The position numbers were made by a program, and so were the translations under genes. A stretch of DNA of 18,188 nt from a virus (Duplodnaviria; Heunggongvirae; Uroviricota; Caudoviricetes): IMG/VR virus record IMGVR_UViG_2671181094_000006, one strand, 5' to 3'. Positions 3,138-16,961 of the stretch are shown here, in pieces (position 1 is the stretch's first letter; the number at the start of each line of letters is the position of its first letter). Below the pieces are notes generated by a model, which was not told where the DNA came from, did not search any database, and saw only the letters and a list, made by a program, of their open reading frames with translations.

Positions 3138-3563
3138 TTAATGAACTTCCGGCATCACAGGCCATTCAATATCTGGGGCATCATCAGGGTTAACACGACT
3201 GAGCAGAACGGAGTATTTTTCCCAGTGTTCCAGTCGCGTTTTTTCATCCAAGGTAGCCATTCCGTATTTCACAGCACGCGCTAAAGGGACGATAACGTCC
3301 TCAGCCTTTGTACGTTGCCGCTCTTTTTCAGCCCCAGCCAGCCTGGATAACTGTGCTTTGGTCTGTGGAGGTACATCGACCCACGAGGGCAAGCCATCAG
3401 CCCCTACCCCCCTTTGCTTACCTTCTGGTGGAACCCTGGTGAACTCGTGAAAAACGTTATCACTGACTGCTATAAGGTCCGCTGGTAGAGAATTGTTGTC
3501 CCGATAAGCTGGTAATAATTCATCAGGGTAAAAACACGCCGTTGACGCACTAAAATGATACAT
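3138..3563 (-). CDS. tail fibre assembly protein (Tfa-like chaperone)
   Basis: Start MYHFSASTACFYPDE and C-terminus HWEKYSVLLSRVNPDDAPDIEWPVMPEV match the conserved ends of phage Tfa chaperones (...W.KYR.LL.RVD...APDIEWP..P). Its ATG at 3563 follows the upstream TAG at 3566-3568 closely. Confidence 0.7.
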   Translation of the reverse strand: MYHFSASTACFYPDELLPAYRDNNSLPADLIAVSDNVFHEFTRVPPEGKQRGVGADGLPSWVDVPPQTKAQLSRLAGAEKERQRTKAEDVIVPLARAVKYGMATLDEKTRLEHWEKYSVLLSRVNPDDAPDIEWPVMPEVH

Positions 3564-3565
3564 GA

Positions 3566-4099
3566 CTATTCCCCTATAGCTAACCATCCAAAATTATCTG
3601 CATTACCCGAACTGCCGCTGATCCAGCCATATGCACGGAAACCGGAATTGGAATCATTGGTTACGGACACGTAACGATTTCCATCTGCGTACTTCGTAGC
3701 AACAATAGCAATAGCCCGCTTAGGAAAAGGTATCGGATACTGAACATTACCTGATGGTGAATTAATAGTGGCAGTTCCCATTTGAACAATAATATTTTTC
3801 TTTTCACCTGATGGTGTTCGGGTAGGAATAATACAGTAACCCTGTGAAGTAAGGGCACCTACGATGGGTTCAGATAGAAGGGCGGTGATCCTCAACTCAT
3901 CAATAACTTCGTTTAACTGACCATCATTTTCAGGCTCAAGCTGGCGGCCAGAACCCTCTACCACGCCCACCATCTCACGCTGCCAGGTATTAAAAATATC
4001 GGCAACAAGAATTGTTGGTGATACCCCATTAGCAACATTACCTTGTGTAAATTCCCCATTACTATCAGCAGTATCAGTGACTGAACTTATCTTACGCAT
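3566..4099 (-). CDS. tail-fibre-tip-like protein (177 aa), too short for a full fibre
   Basis: Directly upstream of and coupled to tfa, which is the usual fibre-chaperone arrangement. The C-terminal half is Gly/Ser/Asn-rich and looks beta-rich (...GWISGSSGNADNFGWLAIGE). The call is mainly positional. Confidence 0.45.
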   Translation of the reverse strand: MRKISSVTDTADSNGEFTQGNVANGVSPTILVADIFNTWQREMVGVVEGSGRQLEPENDGQLNEVIDELRITALLSEPIVGALTSQGYCIIPTRTPSGEKKNIIVQMGTATINSPSGNVQYPIPFPKRAIAIVATKYADGNRYVSVTNDSNSGFRAYGWISGSSGNADNFGWLAIGE

Positions 4100-8395: not shown

Positions 8396-8707
8396 TTACT
8401 GCGAACAGTCGCCCCCGATGGTGGCCTGTCGTTGCTTCTTGCCGCCATTTAACCGGAAGGCGTTACCGTTCGGTTGCGCTATCCCCATGCGGTGTTGCGT
8501 TTCGGTAACAGCTTTATGCAGATCGCCAAAGTCCTCAACCTTCACGGGCGGGCGCTTCACGTTCTCCAGACACGTTTCACGGCGGCGCTTTATCCATTCC
8601 CGATCATCGTCCTCGGTGCATAACAGCATGACTTCCATCCATCGCGCGGCGGCGCGTCGGTACAGCCCTTTTGCTTCCAGATCCTCGGCTTTACTGTCGT
8701 TTACCAT
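8396..8707 (-). CDS. PerC-family transcriptional activator-like protein
   Basis: N-terminus KAEDLEAKGLYRRAAARWMEVMLLC...REWIKRRRETCL resembles the PerC pattern (AE.LE..GLWRRA..RW.EV). GAGGGGG RBS upstream of ATG 8707. Confidence 0.55.
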   Translation of the reverse strand: MVNDSKAEDLEAKGLYRRAAARWMEVMLLCTEDDDREWIKRRRETCLENVKRPPVKVEDFGDLHKAVTETQHRMGIAQPNGNAFRLNGGKKQRQATIGGDCSQ

Positions 8708-8718
8708 GTGTATCCCCC

Positions 8719-9180
8719 TCAGAATGGATCTTCATCATCAAACGGCGGGCGCTGGTCAAAATCATCAGGGGTGTTATATAGCTCCCATCCCGGCGCGGAT
8801 TGTGTTGCGTGGCCTCTGCTGGCTCCGCTTGCTTTGACTGATTCGGCCCGCTTCCCGCCAGGGCGTACCGTTCTGGCGCTGATTACACTGTCGGCTACTA
8901 CCTGATAACCTTGCTGTATACCGCCATCCTTGCCCGTCCACTGATTGACCTGCATCGCTCCGGCAACACTGACTAAATCGCCTTTAACGTGTCCTGCCAG
9001 TGCGTCGGCCTGTTTGCCGAATGCCACCACGCCCAGCCAGAAAGTAACCTCTCCGCCCTCTGCTGCATGGCATGGCAGTGCCACCGCTAAACGCCCCATT
9101 GCCATGCTTGTACCGTTTGCTGTGGTGCGGGTCTGCGGGTCTGCGACTAAACGCCCGTAGGCTGATATCTGTGCTGTCAT
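8719..9180 (-). CDS. ssb: single-stranded DNA-binding protein
   Basis: OB-fold pattern (GRLVADPQTRTT.NG...W..VVAFGKQAD...KGD.V.V.G....QW) and acidic C-terminal tail DDEDPF typical of SSB. Confidence 0.8.
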   Translation of the reverse strand: MTAQISAYGRLVADPQTRTTANGTSMAMGRLAVALPCHAAEGGEVTFWLGVVAFGKQADALAGHVKGDLVSVAGAMQVNQWTGKDGGIQQGYQVVADSVISARTVRPGGKRAESVKASGASRGHATQSAPGWELYNTPDDFDQRPPFDDEDPF

Positions 9181-9283
9181 TTTGCGAATACCTCGAATTA
9201 TTAGTTTTGCTAATGAAGATTACCCGGCTCCGTCTTATTGTGGGACACCTTCGCCAGATTTTTTTGTATATAAACAAAAAAGT

Positions 9284-9545
9284 TGGTGGTTCAGGTGGTT
9301 CAGTGGTTCAGTACCCCTCTAGGCCGCGCCATCTCTGGGTTTTGCTGAACCACCTTTTAAATTTATCTGGTGGTTCAGTCGCCCTTCTTGGTGGTTCACT
9401 GCCAGCCAGTGAAAATAATCCGTTTCTCTCTGGTGGTTCAAAATACCCGTTTGGTGGTTCAGTGGTGGTTCACTTTCTTACAAAAAAACATTATAAATCA
9501 ATAACAATTACTTACTGAACCACTGAACCACCTGAACCACCACAA
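9284..9545. repeat. iteron array, putative satellite origin of replication (about 12 copies of GGTGGTTCA(G/C) in both orientations, flanked by A/T-rich stretches)
   Basis: Read directly, for example tggtggttcaggtggttcagtggttcag and ctgaaccactgaaccacctgaaccacc. Lies immediately downstream of the primase-helicase gene, analogous to the P4 ori/crr iterons. Confidence 0.7.
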
Positions 9546-9567
9546 AAAACCTCGCACGTGAAAAAGA

Positions 9568-12345
9568 TTATTGCTCTGGCTGGCTTTCCTCCCCATCCGG
9601 CAGGAATTGCAAAACGTAAACGTTAATCTGCCTCCCCTGAATGCGCGGGCTTTTCCTCTGAAATTTTTTTCCGTCTGCCGAAGGGGTAAGCATCCCCGAT
9701 TCTTTCAGGACGCGGGCCACCTGCTGCCTGTTAAACCCCTTAGCAATATCCTTATCGAAAGTGTCGGGGAACGTGTAAAACGTTATCGGTGAATCGTCAT
9801 GATTTCCGCGCTGCCTGTATCCAGCCAGATTATGAATCGGCAGGCTGGCGGGGTCGTAAGGCAGCGGCGCGAATCGACTCAGGCCATAGGCATTTAAAAA
9901 TGCCTCCGCCTGCTCGATGATCTGCTGGTGCTCTTTGTTCCCCGTGCCGAACTCTTTTAGCCATGCGTTATAGGCGTGCTGTATCGCATCCCGGCACGTT
10001 TGAGCATCCCAGCCAGTAACCACGCCACCCATCAGTAAAGCGGCCTCCAGAATGGCAAATCTTGCCCCTACACGGTGAACCTGTTCCCCATAGTCGGCAG
10101 GAATTAGACTGCGCCAGCGGGCCTCACACTCACGAACGGCATCAATCGCCTGTTGCTGGTGGTCTGAAAGCCATCTGATCCACTCCCTCCCGGCAGCGCC
10201 ATGATGGTTCTGGTAAGCGTCTTTCAGCGCGTCGGCGTGGTCTCTCCCTGTCTGGTACTCATGAAAGCGCACCGCCTTACTCAGCGGGATATTCAGCAGT
10301 CGCACCAGTTGCCCCGCTTTTGTCTTGCGTCCTGCGGTGGAGATGAACGTTTCTAAATCCATTTCCCCGGTGCTGATTGCCACGGTGCGCCAGCGTTTCA
10401 GATCCCGGTTGCCTCCTTCCTTTGCTCCCTGCAATTTCCCCACGCCGTTAAACAGGGCATAGGCAGACTGAGCAACGCTTATCGGGTCTGCGCCCTGTCC
10501 GACTTCATCCAGTGGCATCAGCCCGTCATTGTGGGCGGCGGCCTCGTTTATCAGCCCCAGCGCCGTTCCGTACCACGTCAGGCGCAAGGCATCAGGGTTG
10601 CCATAAAGACTGCTCGCCACGTTCTGCGTGGTTGTTTTCCCGGCGCTCGATTGCTCGTAAAAATGAATCCCGAAGCCGTCACGCTCCGCCAGCCCGATTA
10701 ACGGTGCTGCAAGTGCGGCGGCAATGCCTGTCATCATCGCGTAGTTACCGTATGCCAGACGCGCAACACTCTTACGCCAGCTCTCTGAGGTTCCCGCCAC
10801 GGTGTACCCGGCAGCGGCAGAACTGCGGCCACTGAATAAAACGGGTTGTGCAGGTGCGCCGATAATCTCCCCGTCCGGCATGATGTATGCCCCGCACTGC
10901 CAGCCAGTAGCGTGAGCAACACGCCACAATTCACGTGAGCCGCTACGCTGTAACCAGTCAGCCAGAATCGCCCGCAAGCTGCTTTTGGTGGTGACGTTAA
11001 CCCCGCCCGCTTTCAGGGTGCGCCAGCCTTCGCGCTCCCCGATATCAGCCAGGGGGATAGCCGCTGTTGTCGGTATGCCTGCGCCAAAGGCCAGCCAGCG
11101 TAATATCAGATACTGATCCTTGTCGTCCCGCCCGGTGCCGATAACGTCCATCGGTGAGGCCAGCCAGCTTTCATTGTTGATAATCTCGCCGCTTTCCTTG
11201 TCCACTTTAGGCGTGATCCAGTAAACGCCATCTTTGCGGCTCTCAATGCGGGGTTTTAGCGGGTCTTTCTCTGGCTGGTCAGTTTTACCGCCCTCAATGG
11301 CCTGTAGTTGTGGTTTCACGCATTCCCCCTGCGGCTGGTACATCGAATCATTAAACGCAGCCGTAGCGACTTCCAGCCCGTGTTGCTGGTGGTAGTCGTT
11401 CCAGTCAGCTTTGCTGTCAGTCGGTGGCAGCGATACCCAGCCAGCCACGGATAAAGCCGCTTTCTCTGCGGCCTCCTTCCCGATGTTGGTGGCTCCGGTT
11501 TCGGAGGCTGCTGTAGGGTGGTCGTTATCTGCGGCGATAATAATTTGCGACTGCGGGTGTTTCCGGCGCATTACTCCGGCAACGTGGATCAGGTTCCCGG
11601 CGTCAATTGCCGCCACTGTGAGCGCGTCAGGCCGCATCTGGTGAACGGACAGGGCGGTAGCCAGCCCCTCGGCAATCACGACGCTTTGAGGCCGTTCCAG
11701 CGCGTTTACGGCGTAATATGCCCCGCGCTTTGCCGATCCCTTAATGAGTCGCTTTTCTCCCTGCGGGGTGATGGTCTGCGCGGCTGTGACTGCGCCGGAT
11801 TCATCCACCAGCTCCAGCAATAACGAACCATCGGGCATAAGCGGGTATTTAAACCCGGTCAGCCCTTTTGATTGCAGGTACTCAGATTCTCCCTGTATGG
11901 ATCTCAGGCGCATTCCGGTATACAGACGGGCAAACGTAGCCCTTCGCTGATCTGCGTCCTCTGCTGCCTGTTTCTGGCGCTCCTGCTCACGCTGCTGGCG
12001 GTCTGCGGCTAACTGCCTCTGTCTCTGGCTGGCAGCGTCTGGTGCTGATTCTGCGGCCCGGTAATCAATACCCAGCACATCAGCGGCAAGCTGTGCCGCC
12101 TCCGTGGTGTCGCAGTTGTTCACCTTCTTAATCAGGTCTAAGCCATCGCCCGCGCCGCACTGGTTGCAGATAAAGCTGCCGCGCCCGTTGTCGTCGAATC
12201 TGAAACGGTCTTTCCCACCACATGCAGGGCAGGGGGCATGGCGGCGCGATGAATCAGGAACGTCGATAGACAATCCGGCCAGCACATAAGGCCATCGCCC
12301 TGCTGCGGCGCTGGTCACTTCGCGGATAAGGTCGATATTACGCAT
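9568..12345 (-). CDS. primase-helicase (P4 alpha-like: N-terminal zinc ribbon, TOPRIM primase, C-terminal P-loop NTPase)
   Basis: 925 aa. Zinc ribbon CPACGGKDRFRF...CNQCG, TOPRIM acidic motifs (VVIAEGLATALS ... IIIAADND), Walker A-like SSAGKTT. GGGAGG RBS upstream of ATG 12345. Confidence 0.9.
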   Translation of the reverse strand: MRNIDLIREVTSAAAGRWPYVLAGLSIDVPDSSRRHAPCPACGGKDRFRFDDNGRGSFICNQCGAGDGLDLIKKVNNCDTTEAAQLAADVLGIDYRAAESAPDAASQRQRQLAADRQQREQERQKQAAEDADQRRATFARLYTGMRLRSIQGESEYLQSKGLTGFKYPLMPDGSLLLELVDESGAVTAAQTITPQGEKRLIKGSAKRGAYYAVNALERPQSVVIAEGLATALSVHQMRPDALTVAAIDAGNLIHVAGVMRRKHPQSQIIIAADNDHPTAASETGATNIGKEAAEKAALSVAGWVSLPPTDSKADWNDYHQQHGLEVATAAFNDSMYQPQGECVKPQLQAIEGGKTDQPEKDPLKPRIESRKDGVYWITPKVDKESGEIINNESWLASPMDVIGTGRDDKDQYLILRWLAFGAGIPTTAAIPLADIGEREGWRTLKAGGVNVTTKSSLRAILADWLQRSGSRELWRVAHATGWQCGAYIMPDGEIIGAPAQPVLFSGRSSAAAGYTVAGTSESWRKSVARLAYGNYAMMTGIAAALAAPLIGLAERDGFGIHFYEQSSAGKTTTQNVASSLYGNPDALRLTWYGTALGLINEAAAHNDGLMPLDEVGQGADPISVAQSAYALFNGVGKLQGAKEGGNRDLKRWRTVAISTGEMDLETFISTAGRKTKAGQLVRLLNIPLSKAVRFHEYQTGRDHADALKDAYQNHHGAAGREWIRWLSDHQQQAIDAVRECEARWRSLIPADYGEQVHRVGARFAILEAALLMGGVVTGWDAQTCRDAIQHAYNAWLKEFGTGNKEHQQIIEQAEAFLNAYGLSRFAPLPYDPASLPIHNLAGYRQRGNHDDSPITFYTFPDTFDKDIAKGFNRQQVARVLKESGMLTPSADGKKFQRKSPRIQGRQINVYVLQFLPDGEESQPEQ

Positions 12346-13712: not shown

Positions 13713-13888
13713 GCTGCCACCTCCTGAACACGGGTGATGCGAACGTGTTTATAACCGCCCTGCTGCGCCAATAACTGAGCGGTCGATTTGGCTGTATCCG
13801 GGCTGGCACCGGTCAGGGTGTAGTGAATGCCGACGGTGTTACCGCGCTTATTAACCGCGTATCCGTCAATCTGGAAGGTTTTACGCAT
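13709..13888 (-). CDS. hypothetical small protein (59 aa; start taken at MRKTFQIDGY, the ORF track extends further)
   Basis: GGAGGTG RBS lies 4-5 nt upstream of ATG 13888. The longer ORF-track start lacks an RBS. Confidence 0.55.
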   Translation of the reverse strand: MRKTFQIDGYAVNKRGNTVGIHYTLTGASPDTAKSTAQLLAQQGGYKHVRITRVQEVAA

Positions 13889-14084
13889 GACGCACCTCCG
13901 ACACCGGCAGGCGAGCAGCCAGAGAGAGGATAAAGTGCGGCGCCAAAATGCGGCGGGCGTCACGTTCGGTTGCGGCCTCGACGGACAGGCGGCAGGGAGT
14001 GGCCTTTTTGTCGTGACGGTTGAGCGCCAGAAAGCGCCAGATGTAGTTGTTCCGCCCTTGCGGGTGTGTGATATGATCGTTCAT
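13881..14084 (-). CDS. hypothetical small protein (67 aa, MNDHITHPQG...), first gene of the leftward operon
   Basis: This is the C-terminal 67 codons of the 391-aa track ORF 13881-15056. GAGG RBS upstream of ATG 14084. The rest of that long ORF crosses a promoter region, an opposite-strand gene and terminators. Confidence 0.5.
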   Translation of the reverse strand: MNDHITHPQGRNNYIWRFLALNRHDKKATPCRLSVEAATERDARRILAPHFILSLAARLPVSEVRHA

Positions 14085-14190
14085 AGCTGCCTCGTTATCT
14101 ACGCTAACGTTGGTGGTTAGAGGCCCGTTGGTGTTGTCGCACCTGCGGGCTTCGCTGTTTTTGTGCCTTACCTGTGCTTTAGCTGTGGAT

Positions 14191-14253
14191 AAGGTGTTTA
14201 AATACCTTATATCAAGGTGTTTAAATACGTCAAGCCAAAAGTATTTAAACACT
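14191..14253. promoter_or_regulatory. operator-like repeats: AAGGTGTTTAAATAC twice in direct orientation plus one inverted copy (GTATTTAAACAC), in a divergent promoter region
   Basis: Read directly. The repeat is centred on the palindrome TTTAAA. Lies between the leftward operon start (14084) and the rightward small gene (14317). Confidence 0.55.
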
Positions 14254-14316
14254 TCACAAATCTGTAGAGATGATTTATTTTCTCTAGTGTTAAAACACCA
14301 ACAGGAATCATCTTCA

Positions 14317-14520
14317 ATGGCTACAGGGCACAGAAACAACAAGTCTGCATACAAGGGAATCAGATTCCCATATGAATTGGTTGAGGAAATTGACGCCAGC
14401 GTAGAGCGAGAGAAAGCCGAAAACTCCGGGGCCAATTTCTCCGCATGGGTGCTGGATGCCTGCGGACGTAAGCTCAAATCAGAGCAGCGCAAAAAATCCA
14501 AAGCTGAGCCAGAGGCATGA
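14317..14520 (+). CDS. small putative DNA-binding regulator (67 aa, ribbon-helix-helix-like), candidate island repressor
   Basis: MATGHRNNKSAYKGIRFPYELVEEIDASVEREKAENSGANFSAWVLDACGRKL... The only plus-strand gene in this region, divergent from the replication operon across the operator repeats. The ORF-track N-terminal extension from 14110 looks non-coding. Confidence 0.5.
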   Translation: MATGHRNNKSAYKGIRFPYELVEEIDASVEREKAENSGANFSAWVLDACGRKLKSEQRKKSKAEPEA

Positions 14521-14662
14521 GTTATGCCTGACTCAACACGGTGTAAATGGCGAGACGCAATCGCTGTTGTTTTTTTAGTTGCAACTGCGTATTCCTCATA
14601 CTGGATAGTTAAGGCTATCGTGTCGCTAATCAGGTAACTGAGTTGGAAAAGCATAAAGCAGA

Positions 14663-14690
14663 GGGTAGGATTCGGAATCCTGCCCTTTTT
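14663..14690 (+). terminator. rho-independent terminator (8-bp stem GGGTAGGA/TCCTGCCC with one G-U pair, loop TTCGGAA, then TTTTT)
   Basis: Read directly, downstream of the 14317-14520 gene. Confidence 0.5.
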
Positions 14691-14807
14691 CCTCAAAGTG
14701 AGGACTGGTGGAATAATCAATGACTTAGGCACAAAGCGCCATTTTACGCTTTGCCATAAAAACAATGAGAAATCTACCAGAATGCAAATTTGCACTCTGT
14801 TCAGACT

Positions 14808-14894
14808 TTGACCATCAGCATTAACCCTGGTATGCTTAATCTGTTTCGGTTTTTCGTAGTGACATTGGCAGCTCTGCAAAGCTGCCTTTGTTTT
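14808..14894 (+). ncRNA. candidate short antisense RNA (about 50 nt) convergent on the 3' end of the Bro-N gene
   Basis: -35 TTGACC (14808-14813), 17-nt spacer, -10 TATGCT (14831-14836). Hairpin GGCAGC-N8-GCTGCC (14867-14886) followed by TTTGTTTT, which overlaps the Bro-N stop codon. Confidence 0.25.
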
Positions 14895-15510
14895 ATGCAT
14901 CATCTTCAACGCCCTCCAGCAATCCGGGTTGATACTTTCTCCATAATCCAATTTCTTCCATCTCAAGACGGGCTTTCTCTCCTTTGCACGCCTGTAGGTC
15001 GCTACCGCACTTACTGGCTTTCTTTGTGTACTGATCCTTGCGGCGACTGAAGTCATTTAGGAATGAGAACGGGACGCCGTATGAACCGGTTTTACGTATT
15101 GACGGGATTACTTCGCGGAACACCCAGTTTGTAAATCTGTGGGCAAACGAGCCTGTAGTAGAAGCTTTACGACTACGGGCAATCAGTTTATAAAAGCCTG
15201 ATTCTGCGGCCATATTCCAGCTACGTGCTCCACCACGTTTACCCGAATGACCCTCAGTTAAAGTTAGGGTCATTACCTCGTCGCCATCCAGAGAGGCAAC
15301 GGCACTGGTTGGATTGCTGATTTCCAGCGCCTGGCACACATCAGATACAACGAACCACGGCTCACCGAAAACATTCACGATCCTGACCGTGCGGCCTTCA
15401 AATTTAATTACTGAAATATCATTTTCACTTGCCGTGAAATTAGCCTTTTTGCTGGCTTCAGGGTGAGTCTTGCCGCTGCCAGTTAAGGCAGTAAATTTTT
15501 TCTGAGTCAT
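14893..15510 (-). CDS. Bro-N domain protein (phage antirepressor-like)
   Basis: N-terminal region FEGRTVRIVNVFGEPWFVVSDVCQALEISNPTSAVASLDGDE matches the Bro-N/antirepressor N-terminal signature. GGAG RBS upstream of ATG 15510. Confidence 0.75.
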   Translation of the reverse strand: MTQKKFTALTGSGKTHPEASKKANFTASENDISVIKFEGRTVRIVNVFGEPWFVVSDVCQALEISNPTSAVASLDGDEVMTLTLTEGHSGKRGGARSWNMAAESGFYKLIARSRKASTTGSFAHRFTNWVFREVIPSIRKTGSYGVPFSFLNDFSRRKDQYTKKASKCGSDLQACKGEKARLEMEEIGLWRKYQPGLLEGVEDDA

Positions 15511-15648: not shown

Positions 15649-15933
15649 TTAGGCCGATTTACGGCTATATGGGTTATTGACGTTAGGTACAGCAGGGGGA
15701 TTACGAACCCACCAGAGCACATCGGACAAAAGCCAGGCGCAGCTATTGCGGCCAAAGTGGCAGCGCGGAGGAAAGCGGCCCTCTTGCTCCATCTTCCAAC
15801 GACTGGAGCGGGAAAGGCTTGTGATTTCGCCACATTCATCTTCACGAATCCGGCGATCAAACTTGAAGCCGTACTCCTCAAGAAGGTTACGGCGTTGTTC
15901 GGGGTTAGGTGGGGTAAAGATAATATTGTTCAT
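15649..15933 (-). CDS. alpA: AlpA-family phage transcriptional regulator (HTH)
   Basis: ...ITSLSRSSRWKMEQEGRFPPRCHFGRNSCAWLLSDVLWWVRN is typical of the AlpA HTH. Start taken at ATG 15933 with GGAGG 4 nt upstream; the ORF track extends to 15981. Confidence 0.75.
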   Translation of the reverse strand: MNNIIFTPPNPEQRRNLLEEYGFKFDRRIREDECGEITSLSRSSRWKMEQEGRFPPRCHFGRNSCAWLLSDVLWWVRNPPAVPNVNNPYSRKSA

Positions 15934-16029
15934 ACTGCCTCCACTGTTTCTAGGTTTGTGGAGGTTATTGTTATCAATCAAAAAGAACTTGTCTGAAATA
16001 TTCCGGAAAATTAACGGAATTTCCGCAGA

Positions 16030-16869: not shown

Positions 16870-16961
16870 ATCGTCACCCTCAACGCCCCTAAATAACTTG
16901 CGGGCCAGGCGGGTAGGGTTTCCCGCTTTTCGGTTGGCCGACCTAGACCCGCAATATCAGT

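Follow-up and report, generated by a model that had tools for sequence, protein, structure and literature searches.

The ylcI gene, its putative operators and their co-variation with the protein

The window analysed here is the whole 18,188-nucleotide stretch of the tailed-virus record IMGVR_UViG_2671181094_000006 (Caudoviricetes), and our subject is a small gene within it, referred to as ylcI, together with the repeats and promoters beside it. All results are computational, and it is at that level that the sequence elements, their conservation, and the co-variation of protein arm with operator and of paired bases in an RNA have been established. The ylcI-like gene lies on the plus strand at 14317-14520, with its ATG at 14317 and a TGA stop codon at 14518-14520, and encodes a protein of 67 amino acids (aa). 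To its left, all on the minus strand, are an Icd-like gene (13881-14084), five more open reading frames (ORFs) of 59-208 aa and a primase/helicase gene of 925 aa (9568-12345); to its right, also all on the minus strand, are a Bro-N gene (14893-15510), alpA (15649-15981), a 279-aa gene and an integrase gene. An earlier note, made from the letters of this DNA and concerned with a span starting at 14085, one base beyond the Icd-like ATG at 14084 (minus strand), had described a 67-aa plus-strand gene with three repeats, divergent from the replication operon. Gene and repeats are confirmed by the sequence with small corrections to the coordinates and with a fourth site added, and ylcI does face the leftward Icd-like/primase operon. 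Its description as the core's only plus-strand gene holds in essence from 9.5 to 18.2 kb, the exception being a 37-aa ORF at 14524-14637.

YlcI belongs to DUF3950 (Pfam PF13132, 28.6 bits against a cut-off of 25), to YlcI-YnfO (NCBIfam NF041551, 48.3 bits against a cut-off of 30) and to phrog_949, which has no assigned function; DUF3950 was matched by all 41 aligned relatives. A second, profile-based homologue search had only close relatives among the matches listed and did not deepen the alignment. The AlphaFold2 model built with 41 relatives shows an IRFP segment in extended form and, after it, two helices (pLDDT 68), and this predicted strand-helix-helix fold resembles solved ribbon-helix-helix (RHH) proteins only. 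The 67-aa YlcI is very probably a small DNA-binding repressor. The DUF3950/YlcI-YnfO family has members in prophages of E. coli K-12 and in phage lambda, and our literature search turned up no study of the function of DUF3950, YlcI or YnfO. A YlcI/YnfO homologue of about 40% identity is also found in lambda-like phages (Lambda_ev243, our L099, at 201-395, and many lambda/Stx records), where it adjoins the right cos end and points away from the late genes. The exact 67-aa protein occurs in Klebsiella pneumoniae, on contigs with the order int-alpA-Bro/Ant-[ylcI]-small genes-primase.

The repeated 12-mer GTGTTTAAATAC is exact at 14194-14205 (O1) and 14217-14228 (O2) on the plus strand and at 14241-14252 (O3, reading GTATTTAAACAC) on the minus strand, with start-to-start distances of 23 and 24 bp. 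The fourth copy, GTGTTAAAACAC at 14287-14298 (O4), is weaker and degenerate and was absent from the earlier note. Each 12-mer is near-palindromic (GTRTTT|AAAYAC), the 'direct' and 'inverted' copies differing at two positions only, and O1 forms the core of a 22-bp near-palindrome at 14189-14210. With up to two mismatches allowed, 11 matches are present in the window and 1.18 are expected; in 200 dinucleotide-preserving shuffles the number always stayed below 11.

From genomes and viral contigs across Enterobacterales we gathered 98 related loci, and later four more from metagenomes. Their conservation delimits a leftward promoter, P_left, at 14204-14233 on the minus strand, the counterpart of P4 PLE, with a -35 element TTGACG (14233-14228), an 18-nt spacer and a -10 element TAAGGT (14209-14204). 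TTGAC is retained in at least 53 of 55 unique loci, and the -10 element TAaNGT, 18 nt after TTGAC, keeps its T in 51/55, its A in 55/55 and its last T in 55/55. O2 fills the spacer and overlaps the -35 element by one base (14228), and O1 covers the last two bases of the -10 element and the predicted +1. The candidate ylcI promoter, P_R (plus strand, 14253-14288), comes from a promoter scan and consists of TTCACA (14253-14258), a 17-nt spacer and TATTTT (14276-14281); an alternative -10 element, TCTAGT (14283-14288), corresponds to the operator-overlapping family consensus TATnGT. P_R is flanked by O3, which lies between both -35 elements and is confined to the TTTAAA-type lineage, and by O4, which sits on the -10/+1 region and is a candidate autoregulatory site. 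The ylcI promoter mirrors P_left in most loci, where a TATnGT -10 element overlaps the third site.

Every collected locus follows a common plan of two sites 23 bp apart, the second abutting a near-invariant GTCAA, and a third, weaker site is found 28-38 bp ahead of the ylcI start. Relative to the start codon the sites lie at about -123/-100/-76/-30, or at -99/-76/-30 in other lineages, positions that are found again in Klebsiella, Pectobacterium, Xenorhabdus, Serratia, Enterobacter, Salmonella-type and E. coli loci. With its constant flanks, (AAG)GTG...CAC, the operator can be written GTG-N6-CAC; the six central bases vary by lineage and agree within a locus. As read from the sequence, this layout is the usual geometry for repression with autoregulation. 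Since sites lie on the spacer and the -10/+1 region of P_left and others flank the ylcI promoter, the view of YlcI as a putative repressor that also controls itself is well supported.

The repeats might instead be iterons of a replication origin, marked by a 23-bp periodicity, an AT-rich core and a DnaA box, with the RHH protein as an accessory. Their regular spacing of 23-24 bp would suit such a role, as would the sequence TTATCCACA at 14184-14192 on the minus strand, which we take to be a perfect DnaA-box consensus and which, read from the sequence, lies one base from O1 in the transcribed P_left leader. Moreover, an unrelated metagenomic contig (L108, 4270-4610) has about 14 tandem 23-bp units, GGTGTTTAAATACACCTGTGGCT, with the same 12-mer; no ylcI was found near this array, which may itself be an iteron array. 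However, the ylcI loci have only two to four copies, placed exactly on conserved promoter elements, the same repeats accompany different primase/helicase types, and the DnaA box, which sits in a conserved CCTGTGGATAAGG block, is present in 12 of 63 unique loci only, spread over several operator types. Given also that the origins of phage-inducible chromosomal islands (PICIs) have been reported to lie downstream of pri (PMC6092414, PMC10111431), we consider an iteron function very unlikely.

Evidence that links the repeats to YlcI comes from the way in which the two vary together. The arm GH[RK]NNKSxYKG goes with the operator centre TTTAAA (Klebsiella, Pectobacterium, Xenorhabdus), G[FY]KNN[RK]STTKG with CA[CT]A[AT]A, SGN[TI]NNKSAKKN with TGCGCA, K[SA][IV]NAKSA[TQ]KK with CGGCCA or CACCCC, and NNKSAKKH with TG[CA]ACC. 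When mutual information with the operator centre was computed, the top ten YlcI columns all fell within residues 2-14 (z of 22.7 at position 5, 19.7 at position 12 and 15.3 at position 14), whereas equally variable columns of the loop and tail gave z of 1-5. A pairwise test over 1830 locus pairs, in which the area under the curve (AUC) measures how well a feature predicts the operator class, gave 0.93 for YlcI residues 2-14 and 0.56 for residues 19-58. The first leftward gene (0.56) and the right-hand neighbour gene (0.54) did no better than the latter. The arm codons and that first gene are equally close to the operators, yet the AUC of the gene is 0.56; simple linkage by distance is therefore insufficient to account for the association.

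The same figures bear on the possibility that another factor binds the repeats, whether AlpA, a Bro-family or Icd-like protein, DnaA or a helper protein, and that YlcI is, for example, an antitoxin-like partner of a toxic Kil/Icd. Operator type is uncoupled from the Icd-like first gene and from the neighbour on the Bro/AlpA side, and both were rejected as its determinants on their AUC values. Indeed, 18 of 36 pairs of loci whose first genes are at least 80% identical carry different operators. AlpA, Bro and primase vary among loci that share operators, and ylcI is monocistronic in most loci. On these counts we believe this alternative to be quite unlikely. Eight mosaic loci (L001-L008) have an identical YlcI and near-identical operators, with different first gene, primase, Bro/Ant, AlpA and integrase. 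Furthermore, a search of metagenomes by the operator pair alone returned four ylcI loci, all with the predicted arm GH[RK]N[NS]KS[AT]YKG. When viral and metagenome contigs were scanned for the operator pair, all matches were either ylcI loci or unrelated AT-rich sequence, and helper-phage targets were not among them. The comparative evidence that the repeats are YlcI operators is strong, and the suggestion of the earlier note, that the gene would repress both itself and the replication operon, draws support from the arm-operator co-variation and from the sites over both promoters.

A nested frame and a predicted antisense RNA

A long frame on the minus strand, which we term eta-like, runs through the whole control region. 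It spans 13881-14903 (340 codons), is in phase with the Icd-like gene and starts at ATGATG (14903-14898), adjoining the Bro-N stop codon at 14895-14893; as a mechanical ORF it is open over 13881-15056. On its way it crosses the ylcI terminators, ylcI itself in antisense, all operators, both promoters and a small RNA (sRNA) gene. From the Icd start to the Bro stop, a stretch of 816 nt, it is uninterrupted by stop codons, where the remaining two minus-strand frames contain 17 and 23, and comparable open frames of 250-560 codons are present in about 80 of the 98 loci. Within ylcI, 53 of 55 unique sequences keep this frame open, compared with 4/55 and 0/55 for the other minus frames. In 36 of the 55 unique loci it extends as far as the upstream gene's stop codon; 17 loci have a start that overlaps this stop (ATGA/GTGA), and 30 have one within -5 to +8 nt of it.

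These features recall satellite phage P4. Citing Forti et al. 1999, the part of PMC10111431 that deals with eta describes it as beginning upstream of PLE and coupled to an alpA-like gene, with its translation letting upstream transcripts escape immunity-dependent termination. Judged on its sequence, the frame arrangement of the window is a reproduction of P4 kil/eta.

Could the minus-strand frame be the real coding unit, with ylcI non-functional and DUF3950 an antisense artefact? The frame is open for 340-391 codons and is sometimes called by gene callers (L008; vB_KppS-Ant). Against this, the plus frame has the codon-position pattern of coding sequence, with position 2 the least variable, as well as the higher amino-acid identity (67% against 59%) and mean BLOSUM62 score (3.5 against 2.5). 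The family also occurs in lambda-like phages outside such a context, and its predicted fold is RHH. Outside ylcI, the long frame is open yet its sequence is not conserved apart from elements kept at the DNA level, such as the second terminator hairpin, whose conservation as DNA gives the 'KTKAAL/M' stretch that opens the frame. A true protein gene on the minus strand was accordingly rejected in favour of a frame that is kept open, and that ylcI is an artefact seems to us scarcely credible.

The span considered by the earlier note also holds a control layer that it had overlooked, a conserved antisense sRNA at 14084-14163. The gene, of about 80 nt and with SymR-like architecture, occupies 14072-14163 on the plus strand and comprises a -10 element TATGAT (14072-14077), a predicted start near 14084, a first hairpin (14084-14119), a terminator hairpin (14120-14153) and a U-run (14158-14162). 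Its RNA is complementary to the 5' untranslated region, the Shine-Dalgarno (SD) sequence and the AUG of the Icd-like gene. The -10 motif TAnnnT is invariant in 50 loci, though it lies inside two different kinds of coding sequence, and 16 of the 22 predicted pairs show compensatory changes. On the plus strand 97% of cells pair, against 84% on the minus strand; the minimum free energy is -36.9 kcal/mol (z -4.9), against -21.7 for the minus strand.

The Rfam SymR model (RF01809, from E. coli SymE/SymR) aligns over its full length with 32.4 bits (E 7.8e-4), below its gathering score of 61, and at that score no SymR was found in 20 related loci. The likeness lies in a two-hairpin RNA of about 77 nt that arises from inside the 5' coding end of its target and complements the target's SD and start codon; unlike SymR, the target here is the Icd/Kil-like gene and not symE. 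Copies of the Icd 5' end with the sRNA segment, 75-85% similar, are present in 1251 of 5426 complete E. coli genomes, and ylcI was confirmed beside the segment in two E. coli loci (L101, L102). A near-identity search of complete E. coli genomes did not find the exact module of the window. In PGAP annotations YlcI/YnfO stands beside Icd-like genes of int-alpA-BRO islands, one of them an O157-type island next to roxA.

Proposed repression by YlcI and its proposed bypass

The region as a whole is built like the left-operon region of P4, with an alpA-like gene (orf88 in P4), a long frame with an internal promoter, Kil/Icd, small genes and primase. The Icd-like gene (minus strand, 67 aa, NCBIfam phage_ICD_like, E 1.4e-21), the first of the leftward replication operon, stands after the internal promoter and encodes a P4 Kil homologue with 43.5% identity to P4 8171-8344; it also matches N15 cA/gp32. 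As in P4, the long frame is in phase with kil, has its start upstream of the internal promoter and shows coupling to the gene that lies upstream (for P4, PMC10111431). The difference is in the immunity factor: the window has an antisense-encoded RHH gene, operators on the internal promoter and a cis-antisense sRNA in place of the P4 CI RNA. A CI/C4 RNA of the P4 type, with its seqA/isrK target in the leader, was sought and rejected, the C4, isrK and c4-a1b1 families being found neither in the window (E up to 1, and at the gathering score) nor in 20 ylcI loci (at the gathering score), whereas in P4 as positive control all three were recovered, including matches of 74.9 and 60.8 bits for C4 and isrK and c4-a1b1 just under its gathering score. 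On this comparison, a protein appears to have taken the place of P4's RNA immunity factor, and the protein (ylcI) and RNA (C4/isrK) immunity modules may be mutually exclusive.

Other immunity regions offer partial parallels. The immI region of P22 has two RHH repressors, Mnt and Arc, whose N-terminal residues set specificity; its operators overlap close, opposed promoters, and a short antisense RNA (sar) lies over the ribosome-binding site of the first gene. The window shares with it the plan of a small, predicted RHH repressor with putative N-terminal specificity, candidate operators on opposed promoters and an antisense RNA over the first gene's ribosome-binding site. It differs in having one repressor gene and not two, a Bro-N anti-repressor gene upstream and not downstream, and a replication operon as the probable object of control; Arc and Mnt have no detectable sequence relation to YlcI by PDB profile search or Pfam. 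The immI regions of P1 and P7 (c4 RNA-icd-ant) and the immA region of N15 (cA-icd-antA) likewise have an Icd-family first gene, RNA-level control and an anti-repressor/immunity operon, but their C4-type RNA is processed from the same transcript, whereas the RNA of the window is cis-antisense and is joined by a presumed protein repressor.

We propose that YlcI is an RHH repressor and that, in the P4-like control region of a Gram-negative PICI, it acts as the protein 'immunity' factor, a reading to which we give a probability of roughly 60%. The binding, repression, bypass and Rho involvement that we infer would fit together as follows. In the quiescent state the GTG-N6-CAC operators would be bound by YlcI oligomers; beta-strand (IRF) and operator flanks do not vary, and the variable arm (residues 2-14) would read the variable centre. 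Occupation of O2 in the spacer and of O1 at -10/+1 would turn P_left off, so that neither the Kil/Icd-like gene nor the primase operon is expressed; flanking the ylcI promoter, O3 and O4 would bring about negative autoregulation. The SymR-like sRNA, made constitutively, would pair with the SD and AUG of leaky P_left RNA, blocking Kil/Icd translation and also opening the leaky transcript to Rho-dependent termination. Induction would not require inactivation of YlcI. The helper would trigger AlpA and thereby transcription from upstream, through alpA and Bro-N, and ribosomes would enter the eta-like frame by translational coupling. Coupled transcription and translation would then proceed across ylcI, the operators and the sRNA gene and on into the replication operon, as with P4 eta, and the read-through would silence ylcI and the sRNA by convergent transcription, locking the switch on. 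The alpA gene is the likely source of the inducible upstream transcription, and induction probably bypasses YlcI by AlpA-driven read-through.

The earlier note had likened the locus to stl/str of Staphylococcus aureus pathogenicity islands (SaPIs) and thought it might be the switch that the helper phage senses. On an Stl-like account, YlcI would be the sole switch that silences the whole island, and a helper protein would bind it and lift repression. The divergent layout, with operators on both promoters, agrees with such an account; a divergent repressor facing a satellite replication module is what the window shares with SaPI Stl and with Rpr of Gram-positive PICIs. It would also fill a gap, the global repressor of Gram-negative PICIs being reported as unclear and unidentified by Fillol-Salom et al., who called the contrast with Gram-positive islands a mystery (PMC6092414). 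Homologues of YlcI in lambda-like phages could in principle form mixed oligomers with the satellite protein. However, Stl, a helix-turn-helix protein, is larger, includes a part that senses the helper and governs the entire island (PMC6092414, PMC6695447), whereas YlcI is a 67-aa RHH-type protein encoded downstream of int and alpA. It matched no helix-turn-helix family and consists of a single small DNA-binding fold with a basic tail, with no second, sensing domain and none of the multi-domain make-up of Stl. Furthermore, int, alpA and Bro are situated upstream of the operators, beyond their reach, and the conserved eta-like frame favours a bypass. Published data place helper sensing at alpA, the helper acting by inducing this activator (PMC6092414). 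Thus the divergent layout of the SaPI analogy stands, its organisation and sensor do not, the plan being that of the P4 left operon, and the helper-sensed switch finds no support. An Stl-like master repressor is in our judgement unlikely, and YlcI is probably bypassed instead of inactivated.

Several points count against the proposal of an RHH repressor in a P4-like region. The confidence of the AlphaFold2 model is modest and the beta-strand is unformed in the monomer. Foldseek found no significant match in the PDB, a PDB profile and sequence search gave a chance match only and no RHH protein, and no RHH family of Pfam matched at E up to 10, RHH_1 appearing in one of 41 members at E 0.24. Since the sequence searches give no link to RHH proteins, the designation of YlcI as an RHH (MetJ/Arc) protein depends on its predicted fold. 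The 23-24 bp spacing of the operators corresponds to a non-integral number of helical turns. The P_left -10 element fits the consensus at three of six positions and was not called by a simple promoter scan, and in the window the ylcI promoter is either weak or ambiguous. The eta-like frame is missing in a minority of loci, for instance Pectobacterium/Brenneria L025-L033. No GTG-N6-CAC operators were found at the lambda-like phage homologues near cos, and the family may therefore have a different or additional role. Finally, the arm-operator association is drawn from related sequences, and co-inheritance of a small recombination block could explain part of it, although the equally close leftward gene shows no such association.

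A wider version of the proposal is more tentative and, we think, doubtful as it stands. It holds that DUF3950/YlcI proteins are diversifying satellite immunity repressors of arm-coded types (TTTAAA, CAYAWA, TGCGCA, CGGCCA), nested antisense in an eta-like frame, where one read-through would bypass the repressor, silence ylcI and the sRNA and express the replication genes. Cross-talk between satellite YlcI and the homologues of lambda-like helpers is a further possibility.

Our literature search found no RHH repressor in PICIs, no link between DUF3950 and satellites and no such nested arrangement. What would be new here is an RHH repressor/operator pair within a P4-type control region, both parts being of known kinds. 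If our proposal is correct, YlcI would be the repressor that Gram-negative satellites were thought to lack, and the locus offers a concrete and widespread candidate, found at 98 loci across Enterobacterales. It gives DUF3950/YlcI-YnfO a testable function, and the correspondence between arms and operators could be tested by swaps and used in the design of orthogonal repressors. The P4 kil/eta anti-termination device would then be general, with its RNA immunity factor exchanged for a protein in the same scaffold. Were the nested switch also to hold, the architecture would be one undescribed for any satellite and would supply the missing repressor of Gram-negative PICIs.

The island around ylcI

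The window has the co-oriented int and alpA, the Bro-network gene, the D5/DUF5906-type primase and the captured late genes that mark Gram-negative PICIs, for which a four-zone plan has been published (PMC10111431). By its gene order, which fits that plan, the host element is a Gram-negative PICI. The Bro-N/anti-repressor-family gene (14893-15510, minus strand) encodes 205 aa and matches Pfam Bro-N (E 1.6e-15) and the anti-repressor family phrog_2593; the gene of the AlpA-family regulator (15649-15981, minus strand) matches Pfam Phage_AlpA (E 4.3e-10).

Two plus-strand hairpins follow ylcI. The first, at 14660-14692, resembles an intrinsic terminator and ends in UUUUU (-18.1 kcal/mol, z -3.4); the second is a terminator-like hairpin with UUUGUUUU at 14867-14896, just ahead of the Bro-N 3' end. 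Judged by their position and form, both would end ylcI transcription before Bro-N. The 37-aa hydrophobic ORF between them and ylcI, MPDSTRCKWRDAIAVVFLVATAYSSYWIVKAIVSLIR (14524-14637, plus strand), has a good SD and begins 4 nt past the ylcI stop codon. It was considered as a conserved partner of ylcI and rejected, being confined to close relatives, and a small ORF that follows the lambda-type ylcI proved to be unrelated.

In the Klebsiella loci L001 and L003-L006 (about 8565-12204) the satellite integrase adjoins lambda-type portal, gpW and terminase genes. The satellite there is therefore, on its gene context, apparently embedded in the late operon of a helper prophage, like the published helper-embedded PICIs (HE-PICIs). 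The late zone of the window itself (2202-2789 and 3138-4099, minus strand) contains tail-fibre and tail-fibre-assembly genes, and the N-terminus of one protein of this region resembles a terminase small subunit. Lastly, the Rfam int-alpA RNA motif (RF02996, 62.6 bits) lies at 16886-16953 on the minus strand, between the integrase gene and the 279-aa gene, and is also present in L013, L017 and L040.

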